Assembly (NCBI GenBank): GCA_964626665.1
Contig: CAZVGK010000013.1
Span: forward strand, 15,628 to 79,627
Direction of reading: 5' to 3'
From: an uncultured Gemmatimonadota bacterium
Lineage (GTDB): Bacteria; SM23-81; DAOVCL01
DNA length: 64,000 nucleotides
The notes below the pieces were generated by a model that worked only from the letters and a program-made list of their open reading frames with translations, did not search any database and had not been told where the DNA came from. Position numbers and translations under genes: made by a program. This document shows positions 10,466 through 50,027 of this stretch, one piece after another (the stretch's first letter is position 1; every line of letters begins with the position of its first letter).

Positions 10466-10960
10466 ATGCCGTATATCGTCACCGTAGAGGATAAGAGATT
10501 TAAGATCGATTTGCAAAGGGAGGGGAACAAGTTCATAGCCTATATAGACAGCGATCCCTTAGAGGTAACAGTTGCCGAAGCGGGCAATCCATCACACCTC
10601 TCCTTGATAGCGGGAAACAGGTCCTATGATGTGACAATTGAGGATGAGGGCCTTGTCTCGGTGGACGGGGAGATGTTCCCTGTAAAGGTTGAGGATGAAA
10701 GGGCCTTGCAGTTGGCCCAGTTTAGACGGAGTTCCCAGCGGGCGGTAGAGGAATCGATAGCCGCCCCTATGCCGGGCTTAGTGGTAGAGGTAGAGGTGAA
10801 AGCAGGGGATAGGGTTAAGGAGGGGGAGGGGTTGGTGGTTATCGAGGCGATGAAGATGCAGAACGAATTGAAAGCTCCCCGGGAAGGCAAGGTCAAAAAG
10901 GTATTGGCCAAGAAGGGGATGCCGGTGAATGGGGGGGACACCCTTCTGGTGATGGAATGA
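10466..10960 (+). CDS. Biotin carboxyl carrier protein
   Basis: APMPG...EAMKMQNE biotinylation motif. Confidence 0.93.
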   Translation: MPYIVTVEDKRFKIDLQREGNKFIAYIDSDPLEVTVAEAGNPSHLSLIAGNRSYDVTIEDEGLVSVDGEMFPVKVEDERALQLAQFRRSSQRAVEESIAAPMPGLVVEVEVKAGDRVKEGEGLVVIEAMKMQNELKAPREGKVKKVLAKKGMPVNGGDTLLVME

Positions 10961-10999
10961 AAATACCTAAAAAGTCCAAAATACCTAAATGCCTAAAAT
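10961..10999 (+). repeat. Left arm: (A/G)CCTAAA(T) 8-bp tandem array
   Basis: aaatacctaaaaagtccaaaatacctaaatgcctaaaat begins immediately after the BCCP stop codon. Confidence 0.85.
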
Positions 11000-11380
11000 A
11001 TGGAGAAGAAATATAGCGTTAGCGATGAGCTCAAAGGGAGAACCTATAATTTTGCCTTGAGAATTCTAAGACTTGGCAGGTTGTTGCCAAATACTGAAGA
11101 GGGCAGGATAGTTAGGAGACAGGTTTTCAAAGCAGGCACTTCAGTAGGGGCCAATCTGGAAGAAGCCGATGGTTCCTTAAGCTTAAATGACTTCATATAC
11201 AAGGTGGACATCGCCTTTAAGGAGGCGAAGGAAACCAGATATTGGTTGCAGATGATCATTGATGCAGGGTTTATCCCTCAAAAGAGGGTGTCACCAGATC
11301 TGGAAGAGTGTGTAGAGATCATCAAAATCTTGTCGACCATAATCTATAGGAGTTTAAAAAGGAAGAAAACTAAGATCTAA
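11000..11380 (+). CDS. Four helix bundle protein (TIGR02436 / 23S rRNA IVS protein-like)
   Basis: 126 aa: RTYNFALRIL...RQVFKAGTSVGANLEEA...DFIYKVDIAFKEAKETRYWL...EIIKILSTI. Confidence 0.92.
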   Translation: MEKKYSVSDELKGRTYNFALRILRLGRLLPNTEEGRIVRRQVFKAGTSVGANLEEADGSLSLNDFIYKVDIAFKEAKETRYWLQMIIDAGFIPQKRVSPDLEECVEIIKILSTIIYRSLKRKKTKI

Positions 11381-11414
11381 GTCTTTAGGTATTTAGGTCT
11401 TTAGGCATTTAGGT
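11381..11414 (+). repeat. Right arm: TTTAGG(T/C) 8-bp tandem array, inverted relative to the left arm
   Basis: gtc-tttaggta-tttaggtc-tttaggca-tttaggtg. 15 bp are the exact reverse complement of ACCTAAATGCCTAAA in the left arm. Confidence 0.9.
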
Positions 11415-11421
11415 GGTTTAA

Positions 11422-12969: not shown

Positions 12970-13002
12970 GGGTTTCAAACCGGCGAAGCTTCGAATGTAA
13001 AA

Positions 13003-13105
13003 TTCACCCTGTTAAATATTTGCTTGTTTCAAAAGTTCGAGTTCTTCTTCTAATTTTTGTTTCGCCTCTAATTTTTTGATCGGACTCACTATTTAACGGG
13101 GTGAA
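13003..13105. mobile_element. MITE-like element with TTCACCCCGTTAAATA terminal inverted repeats
   Basis: ttcaccctgttaaata ... tatttaacggggtgaa (15/16 match). Same ends as 6501-6560 with an unrelated interior. Confidence 0.6.
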
Positions 13106-13166
13106 GAATTTAGAATGAGAAAGCCTGAAACCAAAGGGACTGGTTCAAAGATGGGGAGGATAGATT

Positions 13167-17749: not shown

Positions 17750-18796
17750 ATGGTTGGTATAGTAGGATATGGATCATACCTTCCCAGGTATAGGATAAAA
17801 GTGGAGGAGATTGCTCACCAATGGGGAGCGGACCCAGAGGGCATAAAAAGGGGGCTTCTCTTAAGGGAGAAGACCGTTCCCGCCCCTGATGAAGATGCGA
17901 TCACCATTGCAGTTGAGGCCTCCAGGAATGCTCTTAAACGGGCCGGTATAAAGCCAAGTGAAATAGGCGCTGTCTATGTGGGTTCGGAATCCCATCCTTA
18001 TGCAGTAAAGCCCTCAGGCACAATCGTCGCTGAGGCCCTGGGGATAACCCCTGAGGTCCATATTGCCGACTACGAGTTTGCCTGTAAGGCAGGGACTGAG
18101 GCTATGTGGGTGGGGCAGGGCTTGGTGAAAGCAGGGGAGGTCAAGTACGCCTTATCGGTGGGTGCGGACACATCCCAGGGAGCACCTGGGGATGCCCTGG
18201 AATACTCGGCATCAGCCGGGGGATCAGCCTTTATCTTTGGCCAAACCGGGGTGGTGGCAGAGGTTGTCGCCACTTACTCCTATGCCACCGATACCGCCGA
18301 CTTCTGGAGGCGGGAGGGTGCCTTCTATCCCCGCCATGGAGGCAGGTTTACCGGTGAGCCCGCCTATTTCAAGCATATCTTGGGTGCGGCCAGGGGGATT
18401 ATGCAAAAGGCCGGCCTTAAACCTGCCGATTTCGCTTATGCCGTCTTCCATATGCCCAATGGCAAGTTCCCGTTAACTGCGGGCAAGAGGCTTGGTTTTT
18501 CCCAGGAGCAGCTTGACCCTGGTTGGGTAGTGCCGTTGATGGGGAACACCTACTCAGGCTCATCACCAACCGGTTTGTCTGCTACCCTCGATGTGGCCAA
18601 GCCAGGTGACTTTATCTTACTCACCTCATTTGGCTCGGGCGCAGGTAGCGATGCATTTGTCTTCAAGGTTACGGAGAGAATCGAGGAGGTAAGGAACAGG
18701 GCGATGAAAGTGAGGGAGCTTTTGGAGGATAGCCCGATATATTTAGATTATGGTCTCTACGCCAAATTTAGGGGGAAGATAATTATGAATAGATAG
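17750..18796 (+). CDS. Hydroxymethylglutaryl-CoA synthase, archaeal type
   Basis: [26 protein letters not shown] (Glu), FACKAGT (Cys), FHMPNGKF (His), [15 protein letters not shown]. Confidence 0.9.
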
Positions 18797-18844
18797 GCGG
18801 GCTCTTAGCTATGAAGACGTAAGTCACTAAGAATATGGGAAATT

Positions 18845-18978
18845 AACCCGAATTATTAATGGACTGAAGACGAATTGACATAACCCTTTCAAGGCTAATG
18901 ATTTATGTGCTTGTTTTGTAGGGACAGACATTTATGTCTGTCCGCCTCGTGTCTTTGGGGCATGAATAATTAGGGGTT
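18845..18978. mobile_element. MITE-like element with AACCCGAATTATT ends enclosing a GTAG-REP
   Basis: aacccgaattatt ... aataattaggggtt, with gtagggacagacatttatgtctgtcc inside. The same right end occurs at 23141-23157 and about 6703. Confidence 0.5.
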
Positions 18979-19005
18979 AGAATCTTAGGAGAAAGCGAGG
19001 GGGAA

Positions 19006-20154
19006 ATGAGAGATGTCGCCATTATTGGGGTGGGAATGACAAAGTTTGGGGAGCTATGGGACAGTTCGATCCGCGATATTTTTGCCGAGGCCGCGCTTAA
19101 GGCCATAGCCGATGCTGGGGTTGACCACATAGACTCGATGTATGTGGGCAATATGACCGCTGGTTTGTTTGTGGGTCAGGAGCACATCGGGGCCCTGATG
19201 GCCGACTACTTGGGAGTTGTCCCCATTCCGGCAATAAGGGTTGAGTCCGCCTGTGCCTCTGGGGGGATGGCCTTACGCCAGGGTCTTATGGAGGTGGCAT
19301 CTGGGATGAGCGATATTGTCCTTGCCGGAGGGGTGGAGAAGATGTGGGATGGTGTAGATGTGACCTATGCTTTGGCCACGGCCAGCGACCAGGAGTATGA
19401 GGTCTATCAGGGGATGACTTTCCCCGGCCTATATGCAACGATCGCCCGCGCCCATATGCACCGCTACGGGACAACGAGGGAACAGCTTGCCTTGGTGGCG
19501 GTGAAAAATCACAAAAATGGCTCACTAAACCCCAATGCTCAATATCAGATGGAGATTACGGTTAATACGGTGCTCAACTCCACTAAGGTGGCAGATCCGC
19601 TTACCCTGCTGGATTGTTCCCCGGTGACAGACGGCGCCGCCGCGGTGATACTTTGTCCTCTTGCAGAGGCAAAGAGATATACTGACCTGCCTGTGAAGAT
19701 ACTTGCCTCCGCAGCGGCCACGGACTATCTGGCTTTACATCAGAGGGAGGACATAATCGCTCTGAAGGCAGTTAGGGTCTCAGCGGAGAAGGCCTTTAAA
19801 CAAGCGGGGTTTGGGCCGGAAAAGATCGATGTGGCCGAGGTTCATGATTGTTTCACCATCGCAGAGATATGTGTAATCGAGGAGATGGGTTTTGCAGAGA
19901 GAGGGAAGGGGGGGGAATTTACCGCAAGGGGTTATACAGCCCTCGATGGCAAGATTCCCATTAATCCCTCGGGGGGCCTCAAGTCCAAGGGGCACCCCGT
20001 GGGAGCTACCGGGGTAGCGCAGGCGGTGGAAATAGTGGAGCAACTCCGTGGCGATGCCGGCAAGCGGCAAGTAAAGGGGGCCAAGATTGGACTTGCCCAA
20101 AATATGGGTGGTTCAGGGGCATCGTCAGTGGTTCACATATTTGGAGTTGCTTGA
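19006..20154 (+). CDS. Acetyl-CoA acetyltransferase (archaeal/SCP2-type thiolase)
   Basis: [42 protein letters not shown]. Confidence 0.92.
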
Positions 20155-20405
20155 GTCATTGCGTAGTTAGGTCATTGAGTCTGTAAGTATACGAGAAATT
20201 GGCAGAAAGTGAGAAACTTAGTCAGATACAAATGGACGGGCAGGAAGCTGGAGCAGAAGTTGGCCTCATCCTTATGAAGCATTGGCTCTAAACTATGTCA
20301 TCGGAATGATTTCGCTAAACCCTACACCACTTTGACTCAACAACTCAATAAACTCAATAGACTCAACAGATTCAATGACTCAATAGACTCAACGCACTCA
20401 ACAAA
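20151..20405 (+). repeat. TTGAGTC / GACTCAA inverted arrays enclosing a decayed four-helix-bundle remnant
   Basis: The left arm 20151-20181 contains the thiolase stop codon. The right arm 20334-20405 has about 8 units. The interior encodes NWQKVRNLV, compared with WQGARDLV in the intact gene at 20853. Confidence 0.75.
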
Positions 20406-20416
20406 CGGAGGTTATT

Positions 20417-20824
20417 ATGCCAGTGCCAAGGTATACAAGGGAGATACCCCAAAGATTCAGGCTGGAGGCGAGTAGGTGCAAATCCTGCGGTAAGATTCTT
20501 TTCCCCCCTAGGCCTGTCTGCCCACAATGTGGGTCAAAGGAATTTGAAAAAGTGCGGTTGAGCGATAAGGGGAAGGTGGTTACCTTCACGGTAATTAGGG
20601 TTGCTTCTGAGCAGTTCGCTACCCAGACACCCTATGTGGTAGCTGTGGTGGAGTTGAGTGATGGAGCGCGCATAACCACCCAAGTGGTGGACTGCCGGCC
20701 GGAGGAGGTAGAGATTGGGAAGTCGGTGCGGCTTGTTTTCCGGAGGGTTCAAGAAGAGGGCAAAACAGGCATCCTCAATTATGGGTACAAGGGTGTGTTG
20801 AGTCAGGACTCATTGAGTCGTTGA
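20417..20824 (+). CDS. DUF35 Zn-ribbon/OB-fold protein (thiolase partner)
   Basis: C..CG...FPPR..CP.C, GKVVTFTVI, TPYVVAVVEL..G. Confidence 0.93.
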   Translation: MPVPRYTREIPQRFRLEASRCKSCGKILFPPRPVCPQCGSKEFEKVRLSDKGKVVTFTVIRVASEQFATQTPYVVAVVELSDGARITTQVVDCRPEEVEIGKSVRLVFRRVQEEGKTGILNYGYKGVLSQDSLSR

Positions 20825-20828
20825 GTCA
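20798..20828 (+). repeat. Left arm: TTGAGTC array overlapping the DUF35 stop codon
   Basis: ttgagtcaggactcattgagtcgttgagtca encodes LSQDSLSR*. Confidence 0.85.
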
Positions 20829-20852
20829 TAGAAATCCTTGGGCCGCCGAGTG

Positions 20853-21236
20853 ATGAAGATCAAAAGATTCGAAGACATAAAAGCTTGGCAAGGGGCAAGG
20901 GATTTGGTCAACAAAATATATAAGGCCATAAGGGGTAATAATGGCTTTTATCGAGATTTCAGGTTCAGGGAACAGATACAGGCGGCAGGTATTTCTGTGA
21001 TGTCTAATATCGCAGAAGGGTTTGCCAGGAGTAGCGACCGTGAGTTTAAAAGGTTCTTATGGATAGCTAAAGGTTCTCTCGCAGAGGTTCAGAGTCAACT
21101 GTGGGTGGCGCTTGATCAAGGGTATGTCACCCAGGATGATTTTGATAGGCTATATGCAAAGGCGGAAGAAGTGGCCAAGCTAATTTCCGGTTTCATCACC
21201 TATCTCCTCGACTCAAAGACCCAACGGACTCAATGA
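20853..21236 (+). CDS. Four helix bundle protein (23S rRNA IVS protein / bAvd-like)
   Basis: FEDIKAWQGARDL...QIQAAGISVMSNIAEGFAR...EF.RFL.IAKGS..EV.SQL..A.DQGY...KLISGFI. Confidence 0.93.
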   Translation: MKIKRFEDIKAWQGARDLVNKIYKAIRGNNGFYRDFRFREQIQAAGISVMSNIAEGFARSSDREFKRFLWIAKGSLAEVQSQLWVALDQGYVTQDDFDRLYAKAEEVAKLISGFITYLLDSKTQRTQ

Positions 21237-21322
21237 CTCAGAACTCAAAGACCCAATAGGCCCAACGGACTCAGAGACTAAATGACTCAACGACTCAATA
21301 GACTCAATGAACTCAACAAACT
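21210..21322 (+). repeat. Right arm: about 13 GACTCAA-type units
   Basis: gactcaaa gacccaacg gactcaat gactcaga actcaaa ... gactcaac gactcaata gactcaat gaactcaac. Confidence 0.92.
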
Positions 21323-21325
21323 GAG

Positions 21326-22933
21326 ATGTATCGCATAGAATCAAAGATAAATCCAAACAGCCCAGAGTTTAAGGCGAACAAGGAACATCTGAAAGGGCTG
21401 GTTAGAGAGCTTAAGGATAGGCTAAGGGAGGTGAAGGGGGGTGGCCCTCCCAAGATGCATGCAAAGCATAAGGCCCGGGGTAAGCTGTTTGTCAGGGATA
21501 GGCTGAAGTTGCTTTTTGACCCCAATACGCCGTTCCTCGAGTTGTCTCCTCTGGCCAGTTGGGGTATGCATAACAATGGGCATCCTGGGGCGGGGATAGT
21601 GACGGGGATAGGGGTGATTCATGGGAGGGAGGTTATGGTTGTGGCCAACGATGCCACAGTGAAGGGGGGAACCTATACCCCTGAGACCATCAAGAAACAT
21701 ATAAGGGCTCAAGAGATAGCTATGGAGAACAGGTTGCCCTGCATATATCTTGTGGATTCAGGGGGGATTTTCCTCCCCCTGCAAGCCGGGACCTTTCCTG
21801 ATAAGTATCATTTTGGGCGCATCTTCTACAACCAGGCCCGGATGTCGGCAATGAATATCCCCCAGATCTCCGCAGTGGTGGGGTTCTGTACTGCTGGTGG
21901 GGCATATCAACCAGCGATGAGCGATGAAGTGGTCATTGTTAAAGGAGAGGGGACGATCTATATTGGGGGCCCCCCTCTGGTTAAGGCGGCAACCGGTGAG
22001 GTGGTAACTGCCGAGGAACTTGGTGGTGCAGATGTGCATTGCCGCATATCGGGGGTGGCTGACCATTACGCCGTAGATGATGCCCACTCTATGGAGATAA
22101 CAAGGAATATCGTGCAGAATCTATCTCCGCCAAAGAGGTTCGAACTGGGGCGCACCCAACCAGAGGAGCCCGCATATGACCCGGAGGAATTATATGGCAT
22201 AATACCGAAAGGTTTAAAAAAGCCCTTTGATATGCGGGAGGTAATAGCAAGGATTGTTGATAGGAGTGAGTTCCATGAGTTTAAGGAGTTATATGGGACT
22301 TCACTCGTCTGTGGGTTTGCTCGGATTATGGGCTATCCCGTGGGCATACTCGCTAATAATGGAGTGCTCTTCTCAGAGTCCTCTCAAAAAGGTGCCCACT
22401 TCGTCTCTTTGTGTAGTGTGAGAAAGATACCACTTATATTCTTGCAGAATATTACCGGTTTCATTGTCGGTAAGAAATATGAACACGGTGGAATAGCAAA
22501 AGATGGTGCGAAGTTGATCCATGCTGTCGCCAATGCTGATGTGCCCAAATTTACTGTGATTGTCGGTAATTCCTATGGAGCAGGTAATTATGGTATGTGC
22601 GGCAGGGGGTATGACCCCAGACTCCTCTTTATGTGGCCAAATGCCAAGATATGTGTAATGGGTGGGAAACAGGCGGCTGGTGTGCTTACTGATATCAAGG
22701 TAAGGGAACTGAAGAGAAAAGGAGAAAAATTAACTCCAGAAGACATAGAGAGAATAAGAGAACCCATACTCAAGAAATATGAAGAAGAGTCCAACGCCTA
22801 TTATTCTACTGCCCGGTTATGGGATGATGGAATAATTGATCCCTTGGATTCTCGTAGTGTGCTGGGACTGGGAATATCAATGTCCCTCAATGCTCCCATA
22901 CCAGATCATAGATTTGGGGTCTTCAGGATGTAA
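21326..22933 (+). CDS. 3-Methylcrotonyl-CoA carboxylase-like carboxyltransferase (beta) subunit
   Basis: [60 protein letters not shown]-terminus. Confidence 0.9.
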
Positions 22934-23045
22934 GGATTTAGATGGAGTTTAATGTAGGAAGGACAGTGAAATATTGAATTGATCGGGCAGAATATGATAT
23001 GGAGACAGCAGAGAGTCTTTTTCGAGCAAGGGAATATCCCTATTC

Positions 23046-23157
23046 AAACCGAGGTGGCAGAACCCCTGTTCTGCCCCAGTCAGATCAGGGGATCTGACCA
23101 CTCAGCTATTGGTCATTCGAAGCCACCGTATGGGTTCTGATGAATAATTCGGGTTAG
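23046..23157 (+). repeat. About 100-bp dispersed repeat containing a GTGG-type REP doublet
   Basis: Aligns by eye at roughly 80% to the reverse complement of 50867-50967. Hairpins GGCAGAAC/GTTCTGCC and GTCAGATC/GATCTGAC. Confidence 0.85.
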
Positions 23158-23179
23158 ATGAGGTTAAGGAGGCATTTAG

Positions 23180-23497
23180 GTGGTTAAGGCGGGGATTGTA
23201 GAAAAAATCAAGAGGTTTATAGAGGTAATTGAAAGGCAAAATATAAAAGTTGCTAAAGCAGTCTTATATGGGTCACAAGTCAATGGGAAAACATACGAGT
23301 ACGGCGATATTGATGTTGCTATCGTTTCTGCTGATTTTGGGAATGACCGATATGAGGAGGGCACCAAACTTTTTGAACTCGCCTACAAGATAGATCCAAG
23401 AATAGAGCCAGTTCCAATTTCGCTGAGATCTTATGAGGAAGATACTTGGGTCCCCCTGATTTACGAAATCAGGACAAAGTGGGTGGAGATAAGTTAG
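23180..23497 (+). CDS. Minimal nucleotidyltransferase (MNT) domain protein, no adjacent HEPN partner
   Basis: AVLYGSQVNG....GDIDVAIVS.DF...RIEP. Confidence 0.85.
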   Translation: MVKAGIVEKIKRFIEVIERQNIKVAKAVLYGSQVNGKTYEYGDIDVAIVSADFGNDRYEEGTKLFELAYKIDPRIEPVPISLRSYEEDTWVPLIYEIRTKWVEIS

Positions 23498-26094: not shown

Positions 26095-26584
26095 GTTCGT
26101 CTACGCGGGCAAAACTTATCGGGTAAACGTTGAAGCAGCCACGGGATCGTGGTTGATCAGCATCGATGACGGAGAGCCTTTAGAGGTTAAGCTAATTTCT
26201 TCCTCCCCGTATTGCCTCTCCTTCTCAATGGGGGGTAGGCCCATAACCGCCTATGCCCTGCAAGGGGATGGCCGGAGGTACATCTCCATAGATGGCGAGT
26301 CCTTTTCCTTTGAGTTGGAGAAGAGTAGGGCAAGGAGGGCCCCTGGGGTAGCGGCCCAGGGGGGAGGAAATGTGGTCAGTTCCCCGATGCCCGGCTTTTT
26401 GGTGAAGGTGCTCGTCTCAGGTGGTGACAAAGTAGAGGTAGGGCAAACGCTGGCCATTGTTGAGGCAATGAAGATGGAGAATGAGCTGAAGTCACCGATT
26501 AAAGGGATAGTAAAGCGGGTAAAATTCGAGGAGGGCAACCAGGTGGACGCCCTCCAACCCATTGTAGAGTTGGAAGCTGTTTAG
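26081..26584 (+). CDS. Biotin carboxyl carrier protein
   Basis: SPMPG...EAMKMENE. Confidence 0.92.
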   Translation: MVEYRFVYAGKTYRVNVEAATGSWLISIDDGEPLEVKLISSSPYCLSFSMGGRPITAYALQGDGRRYISIDGESFSFELEKSRARRAPGVAAQGGGNVVSSPMPGFLVKVLVSGGDKVEVGQTLAIVEAMKMENELKSPIKGIVKRVKFEEGNQVDALQPIVELEAV

Positions 26585-26852
26585 TCTACGAGTCTAAAAG
26601 TCTAATAGTCTAAGAGATTGAGGTCTTTCCATTAGCTATAAGGGATGTTGAGAAGTTTCGCAGAGGTTTTAGGAAGAAGAAGTCCTAAAAGGGTTTGGAT
26701 ATCATCTGGGAATAACCGAAGGGTTGATCTTTTAATATCACCGTAATTGGAGGACTGGCGTTGCGGGGAGAGACAATAAAGATATTGAATTCCCTTTGCA
26801 CAATGGTGCCCCACCACTTTTAGACTTTTAGACTCTTAAGCTGCTAAGCTGC
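26581..26852 (+). repeat. AGTCTAA / TTAGACT inverted arrays enclosing a decayed four-helix-bundle remnant
   Basis: The left arm 26581-26613 contains the BCCP stop codon; the right arm is 26818-26852. Interior fragments read IEVFPLA, (A)EGFR..S, YHLGITEG and GETIKILNSL. Confidence 0.65.
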
Positions 26853-26859
26853 TCCCTAC

Positions 26860-27719: not shown

Positions 27720-28502
27720 ATGGGGTATAAAAGCTTGATTGTGGAGATTGCCGACCAGGTAGCCGTGGTGAAGATAAATCGTCCCCCGGTAAACGCGATG
27801 AATGCCGAAGTGGCCCGGGAACTGGAGGGGGCAATGCATAACCTAAATGACAACGCCGATGTGAGGGTAATCATCATTACCGGTGAAGGCAAGGCCTTTG
27901 TTGCTGGCGCGGATATTGCGGCTATGTCCAAGTTCAATTCACTCCAAGCAAGGGAGTTTGGGAAGTTAGGATGTCGTGTGCTTTCCTATATTGAGAATAT
28001 GGAGGAGCCGGTAATTGCCGCGGTAAATGGGTATGCGTTGGGAGGCGGTTGTGAGATCGCTATGGCCTGTGATATCAGGATAGCCTCCTCCAAGGCGCTC
28101 TTCGGCCAGCCAGAGCTGAAGCTTGGGCTTATCCCCGGATGGGCGGGCACCCAAAGGATGTCACGCATCCTGGGGATTGGCAAGGCGAAGGAGTTGATAT
28201 TTACCGGCGACTCCATTGATGCTCAGGAGGCTCTCAGGATTGGACTGGTGAACAGGGTTGTTCCCCCTGAGGAGCTGATGGACGAGGCCCAAAAATTTGC
28301 TCAGAAGATGTTAGAAACGGGACCCACTGCCCTTAAGCTGGCCAAGACCGTTATAAATCGGGGTCTTGACTCTAACTTCACCACTGCGTCATCCTATGAG
28401 TCGGAGGCCTTTGGGGTCTGCTTCTCTACCCCCGAGGTTAAGGAGGGGATGCAGGCATTCTTAGAAAAGCGTAAACCAAAATGGAGTTTATTGAGTTCGT
28501 AG
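27720..28502 (+). CDS. Enoyl-CoA hydratase (crotonase)
   Basis: AFVAGADI, AAVNGYALGGGCEIAMACD, FGQPELKLGLIPGWAGTQR. Confidence 0.93.
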   Translation: MGYKSLIVEIADQVAVVKINRPPVNAMNAEVARELEGAMHNLNDNADVRVIIITGEGKAFVAGADIAAMSKFNSLQAREFGKLGCRVLSYIENMEEPVIAAVNGYALGGGCEIAMACDIRIASSKALFGQPELKLGLIPGWAGTQRMSRILGIGKAKELIFTGDSIDAQEALRIGLVNRVVPPEELMDEAQKFAQKMLETGPTALKLAKTVINRGLDSNFTTASSYESEAFGVCFSTPEVKEGMQAFLEKRKPKWSLLSS

Positions 28503-28641
28503 AGTTTATTGAGTCTGTTGAGTTTATTGAGTTTTAGGATGTTGACTCAACGAACTGGGTGAACTCAAAGAACTGAGCTAACTCAATGGACTGTGCGGAC
28601 TCAAAAGACTGTGTTGACTCAATGAACTGAGTAGACTCAAA
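28484..28641. repeat. Empty cassette: TTGAGT array directly facing an ACTCAA array
   Basis: The left arm 28484-28535 supplies the crotonase stop codon. A spacer of about 8 nt is followed by the right arm 28543-28641, ending just before the RBS GGGAGGTG. Confidence 0.88.
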
Positions 28642-29985: not shown

Positions 29986-30039
29986 GAGGGTCAGAGAGGA
30001 GAGGTCGGTTCCCAGGGGTGGGCAAAACTAGCCGCGTAA

Positions 30040-30069
30040 GTAGGATCAGGATTTACCTCCTGACCTCAC
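30040..30069 (+). repeat. GTAG-type REP hairpin
   Basis: GTAGGATCAGGA-TTTACC-TCCTGACCTCAC. Confidence 0.5.
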
Positions 30070-30128
30070 AGGTAAGAAATCCCTAAAAAGGGGTTTGGCC
30101 TCTGCGCACTGTTACGAAGGGAGGAATT

Positions 30129-46054: not shown

Positions 46055-46072
46055 TTTTCCTCTCCCCTCAAG

Positions 46073-46112
46073 ATTGTAAATTGAAAGTTGTAAATATCAA
46101 ATTTGAAATTGC
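46073..46112 (-). repeat. Downstream arm: CAATTT-type 7-bp array
   Basis: Minus strand gcaatttcaaatttgatatttacaactttcaatttacaat, ending before the ROK RBS. Confidence 0.8.
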
Positions 46113-46472
46113 TCATTGCCTTTTCTTCGCCGTTATTACCGATTTTCCAATAATTTTACTAATTCGTTCAGTCTCCTTTAAGGCTTCTTCGAACTCTGCT
46201 CCTCCCAAAATTTGGGAACGTTGGATTAGTTTTAACCAATACATTGATTCCCGAGTTTCTTTCAGAACAATATGCAGTTTGTGGATAAAATCTGCTCTAC
46301 TTTGAGCACCTCGAGCTTCCTCATAATTGGCACCAACAGATGTTCCTGAACGCAACAATTGATTCCCTATATGCTTACCGATTGCCGTCTTATTTAACCT
46401 GGCGCAGATTTTGATGATCGCCACGCCATAATCAAGCAATCGCTCAGATATTTGAGCAGCCTTATCTTCCAT
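46113..46472 (-). CDS. Four helix bundle protein (TIGR02436)
   Basis: ERLLDY...NQLLRSGTSVGANYEEARGAQSRADFIHKL.IVLKETRESMYWL...ISKIIGKSVIT. Confidence 0.93.
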   Translation of the reverse strand: MEDKAAQISERLLDYGVAIIKICARLNKTAIGKHIGNQLLRSGTSVGANYEEARGAQSRADFIHKLHIVLKETRESMYWLKLIQRSQILGGAEFEEALKETERISKIIGKSVITAKKRQ

Positions 46473-46510
46473 TTTGCAATTTAAAATTTTCAATTTGCAA
46501 TTTGCAATAC
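46473..46510 (-). repeat. Upstream arm: AAATTGC 7-bp array
   Basis: Minus strand gtattgcaaattgcaaattgaaaattttaaattgcaaa starts right after the trmO stop codon. Confidence 0.85.
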
Positions 46511-47144: not shown

Positions 47145-50027
47145 TTATCGGAGGATTACCATCTTCTTGGTCTTTTCCACCTTAGACCTATTACCTGTTA
47201 CCTTTAACCTATAGAAATAGACCCCGCTTGCCACTTGCCTGCCTGAATCATCCCGCCCATCCCACTGGACCCGATAATTGCCCCCAGGCTGTTCCTCATC
47301 CACTAAGGTCTTCACCTCCTGCCCTAAGATGTTGTAGAGCCTGAGGGTGGTGTGGTGCGGCCTGACCCCTGACAACTGATAGCTGATTGCTGTAGTTGAA
47401 TTGAACGGATTCGGATAGTTCTGGGACAGGGCAAAATTCTGGGGCAGACCAAAATCGTTATTCCTTGGCTCATCCACTTTATCCCAATCCCAAGTGACAA
47501 CTTTGGCATATATGTCCCAGCCCTTGGACCGCCGGGCATCCGTCCAGCTAAAGGTTATGATATCGTCATTAAGGGCTATTGAAGGACCCCATTGAATTGG
47601 GTTAGGGCCTGCAGGTTTTTGATTAACTAAATAGTTTATCCCCCAGCGAGTGCCATCGGAGTGGTATCTTTGGGCATAGATGTCACAGTCACTATTCCGA
47701 TAATCATGCCAACAGATAATGAAATCATTTTCCCTACCGATTGCTATTGAGGAAGAGGACTGCCAATTTTCCCCTTCATCATCGTTCACCCGGAAGTTTG
47801 AGCCCAGTGTATCTCCCGAAATGCTGTACCGCTGAGCATAGATATCGGGAGAGCTATCTTCCCGGTAGTCATCCCAAGAGATGATGAAATTACCATCCGA
47901 ACCCATTGACCCCCGGGGGTAAAGCTGATCACTTGTCCCCTCATTGTCATTCACCTGGAAATTCGAGCCCACTGTATCACCTAAATTGCTATATCGTTGG
48001 GCATAAATGTCCCAGTTACCATTACGCTCGTCCTCCCAACAGATGATGAAATTACCACTTCCATCCATTGCTACCGAGGGATATTTTTGATCACTTGTTC
48101 CCACATTATCATTTACCTGGAAATTTCCACCTAGAGGGTTACCTAAACTGTCATATCGCTGAGCATAGATATCTGAATTTTCATCCCAATCGCCATTGCG
48201 CCTGTCGGCCCAACAGATGACGAAATTGCCACTCTCATCCATCGCTACCGAAGGCTCCTGTTGATAACTTGCTCCCTCATCATCATTCACCCGAAAGTTC
48301 CCCCCAAGTGTATCTCCTGAACTGTCATACCGCCGAGCATAGATGTCCAAGAAGACGTTGCGGCTATCCTCCCAACAGATAATGAAATTCCCGTGCACAT
48401 TCATTCCAATTGAAGGATACCTTTGCAAGCTTCTCGCGGTATCATCATTCACTTTGAAATTTGTCCCCAGTGTATTTCCGGAGGCCTCGTATCGCTGGGC
48501 ATAGATATCGTAGTTCGCATTCCGTTTATCCTGCCAACAGATGACGAAATCGCCATTCCCATCCTTGACTACAGAGGATGAGTATTGCCAGCTTGTCCGT
48601 GCATCATCATTTACCTGGAAATTCGCCCCCACTGCATGACCCAAACTGTTATACCGCTGGGCATAGATGTCTGAGTCCTCATTGCGTTCATCTTCCCAAC
48701 AGATAATAAAATCTCCCTCCCCGTCCATCGCTACCGAGGGAACCTCTTGCCAACTTGTCCCCTCATCATCATTTACCCGGAAATTTGAGCCCAGTGTGTC
48801 CCCCGAACTGTTGAACCGTTGGGCATAGATGTCCATATTGTCGTTCCGGTTATCTGCCCAACTGATGACAAAATCTCCACTCCTATCCATTGCTACCGAG
48901 GAATACCATTTTTGACAAATTTCTCCCACATCATCATTCACCCGGAAGTTTCCTCCCAGTGTGTCACCTGAACTGCTATACCGCTGGGCATAGATGTTGT
49001 AATAACCTTCTCCCCAGCAGATGACAAAATTCCCTTTTTTATCCGTTGCCACGGAGGGAGACCATTGTGAACTTGTCTCCACCTCATCATTTACTTGGAA
49101 GTTTGAGCCTACTGTGTCACCCAAACAGCTATATCGCTGGGCATAGATGTCCCAATTACCGTTACGGGGATCTTCCCAACAGATGACGAAACCTCCATCC
49201 CCGTCCATCGCTACCGAGGGATCCCGTTGTGCACTCGTTCCCTCATCATCGTTTACCCGGAAGTTCCCCCTCAGTGTGTCACCTGAACTGCCATACTGCT
49301 GGGCGTAGATGTCGGGATCTTTCTCCCCATTGCGTTCATCTTCCCAACAGATGACAAAAGTCCCTTCTCCATCCATCGCTATCGAGGGATTCCTCTGATA
49401 ACTTGTCCCCTCATCATGGTTTACCCGGAAGTTTCCCCCCACTGTATCCCCCGAACTAGTGAATCGCTGAGCATAGATGTCCCAGTCACCATTACGCTTG
49501 TCTTCCCAACAGATGACGAAATCGCCGTCCTCGTTCATTGCTATCGAGGGAAATAATTGAGGAGTTGATCCCAAATCATTGTTTACCATAAAATTTGGAC
49601 CAAGTATGTCACCTGAATTAGTAAAACGTTGAGCATAGATGTCTAACTCCCCATTGCGATAATCTTCCCAACAGACGACGAAATTACCAGATGTGTCCAT
49701 GGCAATAGCAGAATACCACTGCCTACATCCACCCGTAGTGTCGTCGTTGACTAAGAAGTCGTCCTTGATGATGCCGAAAATCGTGTTTGCTTCCTCTGGC
49801 TTTAGCATTCTTCCCTCTGGCAGGGAGATGGGTAATTGATGTGCTCTATCTCTCCTCGACCTGCGATGAGGAAAATCCCTCTCCACCAACCAGAACTGAC
49901 CACTTCCCACATCAATCTCCCACCCTCTAACCTCAGGGGCAAAAGGCTGCCATTGGGCAGGGCAGAAATCCGCTGCTCCCAGAGAGAACAGGAACCCAAG
50001 TAAAAACACCAAACTTGCCTTACGCAT
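47145..50027 (-). CDS. Secreted repeat protein (about 14 x ~53-aa DIYAQR repeats, probable beta-propellers) with a FlgD/T9SS-like C-terminal domain
   Basis: Signal peptide, 14 DIYAQR-like motifs, C-terminus LSQNYPNPFN...YNILGQEVKTL...WDGRD..G..VASGVYFYRL...KKMVILR. Confidence 0.88.
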   Translation of the reverse strand: MRKASLVFLLGFLFSLGAADFCPAQWQPFAPEVRGWEIDVGSGQFWLVERDFPHRRSRRDRAHQLPISLPEGRMLKPEEANTIFGIIKDDFLVNDDTTGGCRQWYSAIAMDTSGNFVVCWEDYRNGELDIYAQRFTNSGDILGPNFMVNNDLGSTPQLFPSIAMNEDGDFVICWEDKRNGDWDIYAQRFTSSGDTVGGNFRVNHDEGTSYQRNPSIAMDGEGTFVICWEDERNGEKDPDIYAQQYGSSGDTLRGNFRVNDDEGTSAQRDPSVAMDGDGGFVICWEDPRNGNWDIYAQRYSCLGDTVGSNFQVNDEVETSSQWSPSVATDKKGNFVICWGEGYYNIYAQRYSSSGDTLGGNFRVNDDVGEICQKWYSSVAMDRSGDFVISWADNRNDNMDIYAQRFNSSGDTLGSNFRVNDDEGTSWQEVPSVAMDGEGDFIICWEDERNEDSDIYAQRYNSLGHAVGANFQVNDDARTSWQYSSSVVKDGNGDFVICWQDKRNANYDIYAQRYEASGNTLGTNFKVNDDTARSLQRYPSIGMNVHGNFIICWEDSRNVFLDIYARRYDSSGDTLGGNFRVNDDEGASYQQEPSVAMDESGNFVICWADRRNGDWDENSDIYAQRYDSLGNPLGGNFQVNDNVGTSDQKYPSVAMDGSGNFIICWEDERNGNWDIYAQRYSNLGDTVGSNFQVNDNEGTSDQLYPRGSMGSDGNFIISWDDYREDSSPDIYAQRYSISGDTLGSNFRVNDDEGENWQSSSSIAIGRENDFIICWHDYRNSDCDIYAQRYHSDGTRWGINYLVNQKPAGPNPIQWGPSIALNDDIITFSWTDARRSKGWDIYAKVVTWDWDKVDEPRNNDFGLPQNFALSQNYPNPFNSTTAISYQLSGVRPHHTTLRLYNILGQEVKTLVDEEQPGGNYRVQWDGRDDSGRQVASGVYFYRLKVTGNRSKVEKTKKMVILR

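Follow-up and report, generated by a model that had tools for sequence, protein, structure and literature searches.

What kind of element places arrays of a short repeat, in strictly opposed orientations, between consecutive genes of a bacterial operon? The question is raised by positions 20151-21322 of a 64,000-nucleotide stretch of contig CAZVGK010000013.1, from an uncultured Gemmatimonadota bacterium (the whole stretch is called the window here), a region that lies inside a long plus-strand operon of acyl-CoA metabolism genes. An earlier note on the sequence had described it as two GACTCAA cassettes in tandem, one decayed and one intact, on either side of a DUF35 gene, and our analysis bears out this architecture and supports the interpretation given there. 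We propose, with a probability of roughly 55%, that the two are members, one intact and the other internally deleted, of a widespread class of foldback cassettes resembling the intervening sequences (IVS) of 23S rRNA, in which the gene of a four-helix protein is framed by tandem-repeat arms (unit N[AG]AAC[TC]CAA in the right arm, complementary in the left) that would pair into an RNA stem and be processed within the operon transcript. The arms adjoin or extend into the flanking genes, at the stop codon of the upstream one and in the start region of the downstream one, as can be seen from the order of the features:

19006-20154, plus strand: thiolase, archaeal-type acetoacetyl-CoA thiolase (Pfam Thiolase_C_1 1.4e-49, Thiolase_N 8.9e-31)
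20151-20182, plus strand: left arm of the decayed cassette, 4 units of 8 nt (TTGAGTCA TTGCGTAG TTAGGTCA TTGAGTCT)
20183-20333, plus strand: interior of the decayed cassette, 151 bp without an intact open reading frame (ORF); GC content 43%, like the cassette genes
20334-20406, plus strand: right arm of the decayed cassette, 8 GACTCAA-type units, ending at the DUF35 ribosome-binding site
20417-20824, plus strand: DUF35 / ChsH2-type Zn-ribbon OB-fold gene (Pfam OB_ChsH2_C 1.2e-20, zf-ChsH2 5.7e-14)
20798-20829, plus strand: left arm of the intact cassette, TTGAGTC x3 plus one inverted unit
20853-21236, plus strand: four-helix gene (ATG 20853, TGA 21234-21236), 127 residues, of which 120-127 are encoded by the right arm
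21210-21322, plus strand: right arm of the intact cassette, ~13 units of 8-9 nt (GACTCAA, GACCCAA and variants)
21326-22933, plus strand: acyl-CoA carboxyltransferase (Pfam Carboxyl_trans 4.9e-152)

The window contains GACTCAA 23 times (expected 7.6 +/- 2.8), a count that none of 100 shuffles reached, and 14 of the 23 matches are concentrated in 20151-21307. These 14 are strictly sorted by orientation: the five reverse-strand matches (TTGAGTC on the plus strand) are found at 20151, 20175, 20798, 20813 and 20821, and all nine forward matches fall within 20334-20392 and 21210-21307. With Tandem Repeats Finder, the two right arms are recovered as arrays, 20334-20406 with period 9 and 21210-21322 with period 8-9 (~13 copies); the unit counts of the arms were read directly off the sequence. 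The cassettes have a GC content of 41-44%, compared with 49-55% for the host genes. Other spacers of the operon (12970-13166, 18797-19005, 22934-23179 and 29986-30128) contain no repeat arms and fold no better than their shuffles. The asymmetry already remarked on, with longer right than left arms, holds here (4 versus 8 units in the decayed cassette, 3 versus ~13 in the intact one) and is general among related loci, in which right arms average 5.6 and left arms 4.3 units (64 loci, p = 0.008).

The gene carried by the intact cassette belongs to PF05635, as had been anticipated: its protein matches this family with an E value of 3.5e-32 (111.2 bits, cut-off 33.8) and TIGR02436 with 5.9e-32 (110.1 bits, cut-off 24). 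PF05635/TIGR02436 is a very large family of unknown function, known from the 23S rRNA IVS and as a relative of Avd, the accessory protein of diversity-generating retroelements (DGRs). In its AlphaFold monomer model (pLDDT 94.6), which has four long helices, the protein is predicted to adopt the up-down four-helix-bundle fold of XCC0516 (2GSC; Foldseek TM 0.83-0.93, rmsd 1.4-1.6 A) and BT_0352 (2RLD; TM 0.74-0.86). Avd itself is a more distant match (4DWL; TM 0.72/0.85), and 8UB7 was also matched. Within the clade of the four-helix protein, dN/dS values of 0.05-0.14, with synonymous sites near saturation, indicate that the protein is under strong purifying selection.

Both ends of this cassette are written into proteins. 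The four-helix ORF extends 27 nt into the right arm, which thereby encodes the C-terminal tail DSKTQRTQ*, as the earlier note had stated. Among the 120 closest homologs, the tails after the conserved ...YLL range from 1 to 53 residues and consist of [KEQ][LP][NK] repeats (56 proteins), TQxTQx (25) or N[SP]xN[SP]x (15), 16 being short. The three tail types correspond to the three reading frames of one 9-nt unit, AAC[TC]CAANN; the repeat is thus maintained at the level of nucleic acid, the peptide tail being a by-product. At the other end, the stop codon of the DUF35 gene (20822-20824) falls within the third TTGAGTC of the left arm. The protein has 135 residues and ends in YGYKGVLSQDSLSR, whereas about 60 orthologs have 129-130 residues and end in YGYK[AC]VL[VAI]; the left arm thus replaced the last codon together with the stop and contributed six additional residues (the SQDSLSR region), in agreement with the proposal that this stop was contributed by the arm. 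A contig from a hydrothermal vent metagenome (run X23), aligned at 20492-20803, contains a related DUF35 gene with 14 differences in 312 nt and continues exactly from 20803 into a variant left arm (..TCATAGAGTTCGTAGAGTTTATAGAGTG..), so that a relative in a different habitat also carries a cassette at this site.

The right arm of the intact cassette, which terminates 3 nt ahead of the carboxyltransferase start codon, contains at 21282-21299 a perfect 18-nt complement to the left arm. The predicted stem between 20791-20830 and 21281-21323 comprises 35 bp with -46.2 kcal/mol, beyond all 200 shuffled partners, and the RNA fold of the cassette as a whole stands out from its shuffles (z = -5.5).

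For the decayed cassette, the earlier note had postulated a gene shrunk to about 150 bp. The length of the interior and the loss of the ORF are as described, but the assignment to the four-helix family depends on a best match of 3.7 bits to positions 10-31 of the family hidden Markov model (HMM), the N-terminal part (WQKVRNLV), on the correct strand and at the correct end; 1 of 200 shuffles reached this score. Taken alone this is weak evidence, and we regard the 151 bp as probably a remnant of a four-helix gene. A DNA alignment with the neighbouring intact gene was not significant (69 of 300 shuffles reached its score), so that we do not claim the first cassette as a recent copy of the second. 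The thiolase stop codon TGA (20152-20154) falls within the first TTGAGTC of the left arm, as had been noted. However, the C-terminus HIFGVA* is of normal length (HILGVV* in the closest relative, L011; the 80 orthologs compared extend 2-4 residues beyond HIF/HIL), which means that the arm added no residues there. The predicted stem pairs 20151-20182 with 20365-20397 over 29 bp at -35.8 kcal/mol, again beyond all 200 shuffled partners.

The history of the two sites becomes apparent from related loci, of which 160 were compared: 80 from a thiolase-based genome scan and 80 metagenome loci with four-helix genes. In Ignavibacteria and Melioribacter, thiolase and DUF35 genes share an overlap of 4 nt, and a few WOR-3 relatives have 9-21 nt between them; for most of the WOR-3/Stahlbacteria/TA06 group, the spacer measures 58-190 nt and is composed of inverted tandem-repeat arms, the unit of which differs by lineage (GGGTTTGG, TACCTAAA, TTAGCAA, CCAAAT and others). 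Six genomes have an intact four-helix gene in this spacer. The spacer between the DUF35 and carboxyltransferase genes varies likewise, between 7 nt and several hundred nt. L011, the closest relative (thiolase identity 86%), shares the TTGAGTC/GACTCAA units and has both arm pairs at both sites. Its first site is a shortened form of the debris in the window (105 nt versus 263 nt), in which the 3' part of the 151-bp interior is kept and the remainder deleted. At its second site, the left arm is followed by ~100 nt with homology to the 3' end of the four-helix gene (..LYEKAEEV..), a remnant longer than the interior of the first site, and then by a right arm of ~4 units; right arms in the window and in L011 thus have 8 versus ~4 and 13 versus ~4 units. 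Both arm pairs and the gene remnant in L011 imply that the cassettes are older than the split between the two lineages, that the gene was lost there by internal deletion and that the arms persisted. We regard this as direct evidence at the sequence level for the earlier suggestion that the arms outlast the gene, persisting as what would be an intercistronic hairpin.

Variation within the population was not detected. Ten independent assemblies agree over the 1.3-kb region with 100% identity, 20 salt-marsh runs contain it in full, and neither indels, joints, excision junctions nor empty alleles were found in the assembled contigs of these runs, a comparison confined to contigs in which rare variants may be missed. 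Extra short contigs matching the arms belong to cassettes of other organisms. Given this identity of assemblies and run contigs, no current variation in repeat number is seen; the number differs between species, as in the window and L011, without a sign that expansion continues. Of the two causes considered in the earlier note for the persistence of the arms, selection and ongoing repeat expansion, either may apply.

Beyond the two cassettes studied, four further cassettes or remnants are present in the window, three of them in this operon and one elsewhere:

10957-11421, plus strand: intact cassette, TACCTAAA / TTTAGGTA arms around a PF05635 gene at 11003-11377 (1.5e-17)
26571-26856, plus strand: decayed cassette, AGTCTAA / TTAGACT arms around an interior of ~200 bp without a recognisable gene
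28480-28641, plus strand: arms-only hairpin, GAGTTTATT x5 directly abutting GACTCAA/GAACTGAG x5, 51 bp
46070-46508, minus strand: intact cassette, ATTGCAAA-like units around a PF05635 gene at 46113-46472 (6.3e-18)

The cassette at 10957-11421 is placed between a biotin-carrier gene and methylmalonyl-CoA mutase (stem 33 bp, -31.4 kcal/mol), and its gene is a distant relative of the four-helix gene at 20853-21236. The minus-strand cassette is flanked by two minus-strand genes (stem 31 bp, -25.0 kcal/mol). The decayed cassette at 26571-26856 directly follows the second biotin-carrier gene, whose stop codon lies in its left arm (stem 33 bp, -38.2 kcal/mol); no signal of the family HMM was detected in its interior at 26610-26815, the score being reached by 20 of 200 shuffles. 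In the arms-only hairpin (RNA fold z = -8.1; duplex -60.2 kcal/mol), the left arm supplies the last residues and the stop codon of the enoyl-CoA hydratase gene (..KWSLLSS*). Taken together, the six arm pairs of the window form predicted duplexes of 29-51 bp with -25 to -60 kcal/mol, each stronger than all 200 shuffled partners. The three PF05635 genes are each framed by arms with a different unit, and their proteins are very divergent (phmmer E value 0.0016 between two of them).

The same design recurs in hundreds of relatives outside the window. A word-indexed search retrieved 1,944 homologs of the four-helix protein, and an exhaustive search matched it to 15,644 clusters at 50% identity (E <= 0.001). 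Nearly all of the 80 metagenome loci have a left array of the GAGTTTGTT type and a right array of the AACAAACTC type, with the unit consensus N[AG]AAC[TC]CAA at 9-nt spacing in 40 loci, and more distant four-helix proteins are accompanied by other complementary pairs (GTCCGAA/TTCGGAC, GTCTAAA/TTTAGAC, GTTCAAG/CTTGAAC). Pairing is stronger between the two flanks of one locus than between flanks taken from different loci (-38.5 versus -30.3 kcal/mol, p = 4e-6), the true partner ranking within the top 5 of 74 in 24 cases, and the 6-mer content of the arms tracks protein identity (Mantel r = 0.41, 0 of 500 permutations). The neighbouring genes are mostly co-oriented, both upstream (56 of 65 loci) and downstream (56 of 67), and the median distance from the upstream stop codon to the four-helix start is 64 nt, so that the left arm fills the spacer. 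Relatives of the cassette at 10957-11421 with the same TACCTAAA arms occupy three different host sites in three genomes. Cultured carriers of the design are Riemerella anatipestifer (GGTTTAAGG../..CCTTAAACC; NZ_CP081938, near 100,318-100,734) and Nostoc sp. ATCC 53789, on plasmid pNsp_c near 96,451-96,828 (GGGGAAA/TTTCCCC). The identity of the class, a PF05635 gene with inverted tandem-repeat arms and the co-inheritance of both, is well supported. No match to PADLOC defence models was obtained for the three four-helix proteins of the window, and no close relative was found in the viral contigs searched. At loci L100, L102, L109, L118, L125, L136 and L148, the upstream flanks carry ACTCAA/ACCCAA in the orientation of a downstream arm and not its reverse complement; these repeats may represent the right arm of an adjacent upstream cassette, in tandem as in the window, or a direct-repeat variant.

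Among known systems, the IVS of 23S rRNA in Leptospira, Coxiella burnetii and Brucella come closest in content, as an ORF of the PF05635 family is closed by a long inverted-repeat stem. In Coxiella, terminal inverted repeats pair into a 28-bp stem below the loop that contains the S23p ORF, and cleavage by RNase III takes place mid-stem (PMC4990558); this stem compares with 29-51 bp for the cassette stems. The cassette is likewise bordered by complementary sequences, predicted to form a stable closing stem, and would, like the IVS, reside inside a host transcript; both elements have a poor ribosome-binding site and a sporadic distribution, which suggests horizontal spread. In contrast to the cassette, which sits between protein-coding genes of an operon, the IVS lies within a 16S or 23S rRNA gene and replaces the tip of a helix (helices 9, 25 and 45); its complementary ends are unique sequences instead of unequal arrays of 7-9 nt tandem repeats, whereas the cassette arms extend across host stop codons and lengthen host proteins. 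Cleavage by RNase III has been shown for the IVS and is proposed by analogy for the cassette. An rRNA IVS proper is rejected by location, since the cassettes occupy the thiolase/DUF35 and DUF35/carboxyltransferase spacers; a search of 19900-21500 returned no Rfam family at E <= 1. The two cassettes locally exemplify a widespread and apparently undescribed variant of the IVS-type element; tandem-repeat foldback arms around PF05635 genes were not found in the searchable literature, the partial coverage of which does not prove novelty.

PF05635 is also the Pfam model that detects Avd-like proteins (PMC10053308). The cassette protein shares the four-helix-bundle fold of Avd at ~13% sequence identity, and a DGR was rejected because no reverse transcriptase, template or variable repeat lies next to any cassette; the neighbours within 10 kb are acyl-CoA metabolism genes, and no RVT family was found among the called genes. 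Miniature inverted-repeat transposable elements (MITEs), Correia elements of Neisseria and repetitive extragenic palindromes (REP) or bacterial interspersed mosaic elements (BIME) resemble the cassettes in being inverted repeats in intergenic or operon spacers that are, or in the cassettes would be, co-transcribed, and the arms-only remnants (28480-28641 and many relatives) look like elements of this type. Correia elements are substrates of RNase III. Elements of the MITE, Correia and REP types, however, are devoid of genes, and their terminal repeats are unique sequences, accompanied by a defined target duplication in MITEs and by a GTAG motif in REP, whereas the cassettes have tandem-array arms, a unit that varies from cassette to cassette and a full-length form with a conserved gene. 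Although terminal inverted repeats are present, the gene, the tandem-repeat arms and the lack of a consistent target duplication among spacers compared by eye led us to reject a classical MITE. Recent movement is not indicated either, the region being identical in 10 assemblies and 20 runs and the window copies highly divergent; movement of the cassettes is discernible, from sequence comparison, only on long time scales. A CRISPR array, which has direct repeats of 23-50 nt and unique spacers, was rejected, as the units are 7-9 nt long, head-to-tail and spacerless and the arrays are mutually inverted; an integron cassette was rejected on architecture.

Tandem repeats of similar size, TAACTGA and the short tandemly repeated repetitive (STRR) heptamers, have been described from Beggiatoaceae, cyanobacteria and Bacteroidetes, where they precede start codons (PMC4679880). 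Like the arms, they have units of 7-9 nt, are mostly intergenic and 'forward', end just upstream of a start codon, and sometimes overlap the end of the upstream ORF and supply its stop (PMC4679880). They are described as direct repeats, without a paired inverted array or a linked four-helix gene. In architecture, the closest match to the cassette is found in eukaryotic foldback transposons. These elements, such as FB of Drosophila, have long inverted repeats composed of short tandem subrepeats, unequal arms, and a loop with or without coding sequence. As they are eukaryotic, much larger and associated with a different protein, no evolutionary relation is implied.

Based on these comparisons, we propose the following hypothetical sequence of events for the IVS-like cassette, in which (i) the cassette would be read through as part of the host operon transcript; (ii) its arms would pair into an imperfect double-stranded RNA stem of 29-51 bp, the tandem repeats allowing pairing in many registers, so that stem formation would be robust to the gain or loss of units; (iii) RNase III would probably cut this stem, by analogy with the 23S rRNA IVS; (iv) the cut would release a four-helix mRNA with panhandle ends and separate the flanking cistrons. 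Neither a terminator-like site between thiolase and carboxyltransferase nor a convincing promoter within the cassette was found. Such processing would make the insertion tolerable, and after loss of the gene, the leftover hairpin may be used as an intercistronic processing or stability element, which would favour its retention and would explain why arms persist.

Several observations weigh against this proposal. Folding of the region, a check suggested in the earlier note, gave the clear signal mentioned above for the intact cassette, but the whole decayed cassette folds no better than its shuffles (z = -1.15). The two cassettes share one unit, so that non-cognate stems are equally stable: as the earlier note had envisaged, the right arm of the first can pair with the left arm of the second and loop out DUF35 (34 bp, -51.4 kcal/mol, compared with -46.2 and -35.8 kcal/mol for the cognate stems), which renders the structure in vivo ambiguous. 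A purely structural role also fails to explain why the unit AAC[TC]CAA is conserved across proteins whose synonymous sites are saturated, and complementarity of the arms could be maintained by template switching at the DNA level without selection on RNA.

The least unlikely of the alternatives, in our view still an improbable one, is a mobile element at the DNA level of the foldback-transposon or MITE type. A recombinase with its gene at another place would recognise the arms as duplex, single-strand hairpin or cruciform; the four-helix protein would be the element's own nucleic-acid-binding accessory factor, and RNA folding would be incidental. That gene and arms travel together, that one protein clade with TACCTAAA arms is present at three host sites in three genomes, and that cassette GC lies below host GC are all consistent with such an element; the different unit families found by lineage in the thiolase/DUF35 spacer imply repeated colonisation, and unequal arms of subrepeats are a hallmark of eukaryotic foldback elements. 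However, a transposase, integrase or reverse transcriptase is absent in and next to every cassette examined, and filled and empty spacers of orthologous operons, compared by eye, revealed no consistent target-site duplication, no pair being close enough for an exact junction. The contigs of the 20 runs contain no excision junction or empty allele, and the divergence of the three window cassettes argues against a recent burst. Still less credence is given to the view that no element exists, which we consider very improbable: here the arms would be neutral slippage repeats in AT-rich spacers with genes between them by chance, or an assembly artefact. Tandem repeats of 7-9 nt do arise readily by slippage, and the unit number varies between the window and L011, but this view does not account for the strict reverse-complement orientation in the six window pairs and ~70 loci, the absence of such repeats from other spacers of the same operon, the identity of the region in 10 independent assemblies and 20 runs, or a GACTCAA enrichment reached by 0 of 100 shuffles.

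That the unit is conserved beyond the needs of pairing leaves room for the idea of a protein recognising its own arms. In one form of it, which seems to us doubtful and a little more so than a DNA-level mobile element, the arms would be arrays of binding sites for the cassette's own four-helix pentamer, with protein and unit co-evolving and an RNA- or DNA-protein particle being formed, which might serve, for example, in autoregulation, transcript protection or recruitment of host enzymes. The 9-nt spacing of N[AG]AAC[TC]CAA in 40 loci despite saturated synonymous sites fits this form, as do the correspondence between arm sequence and protein phylogeny and a right arm that is systematically longer than the stem needs; in addition, the protein shares its fold with Avd, a binder of RNA and reverse transcriptase in DGR particles (PDB 4DWL, 8UB7). 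Nevertheless, co-descent with concerted evolution yields the same correlation between protein and arms, the long survival of arms after loss of the protein argues that they do not need it, and an arm-encoded tail translated in any of the frames does not qualify as a module for specific recognition. More speculative, and an outside chance by our estimate, is a further form in which the four-helix protein recognises its arm units and, like Avd, recruits a reverse transcriptase or recombinase encoded elsewhere that copies or moves the RNA or DNA enclosed by the hairpin. This would make the cassette a non-autonomous mobile element whose 'address' is composed of protein plus repeat, and a single mechanism would explain the sporadic IVS of rRNA helices, the cassettes of operon spacers and cas loci, and the many orphan tandem-repeat hairpins found between bacterial genes.

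If PF05635 genes normally come in foldback arms of tandem repeats and inhabit operon spacers in addition to rRNA, the rRNA IVS would be one habitat of a much broader element, and the origin of the IVS, open for 30 years, would become testable in cultured Riemerella, Nostoc and Bacteroides. Many unexplained intergenic tandem-repeat hairpins, and possibly the one-sided STRR and TAACTGA heptamers, may then be cassette remnants. The cassettes would rewrite the ends of host genes, by way of new stop codons, short tails and altered start regions, and would probably create RNA processing sites inside operons. PF05635 genes have been reported inside cas operons, for example between cmr3 and cmr2 (PMC3936711), and as CRISPR-associated (PMC10910872), and have been noted in rRNA insertions of bacteria of the candidate phyla radiation (CPR); tandem-repeat arms are described in none of these papers. 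The reported associations with CRISPR and cas genes may come partly from the repeat arms or from a habit of landing in operons.

Upstream of the thiolase, the host operon contains one further gene of the same pathway:

17750-18796, plus strand: 3-hydroxy-3-methylglutaryl-CoA (HMG-CoA) synthase-like gene

Together with the thiolase and DUF35 genes, it forms an adjacent trio (17750-20824) known from archaeal acetoacetyl-CoA/HMG-CoA synthesis. The trio occurs here in a bacterium, a salt-marsh organism from the neighbourhood of Candidatus Stahlbacteria/WOR-3, and is also conserved in Ignavibacteria, Cloacimonadota and others. After the carboxyltransferase, a small nucleotidyltransferase of the NTP_transf_2/Polbeta type (105 residues, 23180-23497) stands alone, although proteins of this kind are usually paired with a HEPN partner in toxin-antitoxin systems. 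Elsewhere in the window, a minus-strand ORF at 47145-50027 (960 residues) contains ~6-7 tandem copies of a 162-nt unit at 47868-49684, with 69-78% matches, and a C-terminal FlgD Ig-like domain; its product looks like a repeat-domain surface protein.

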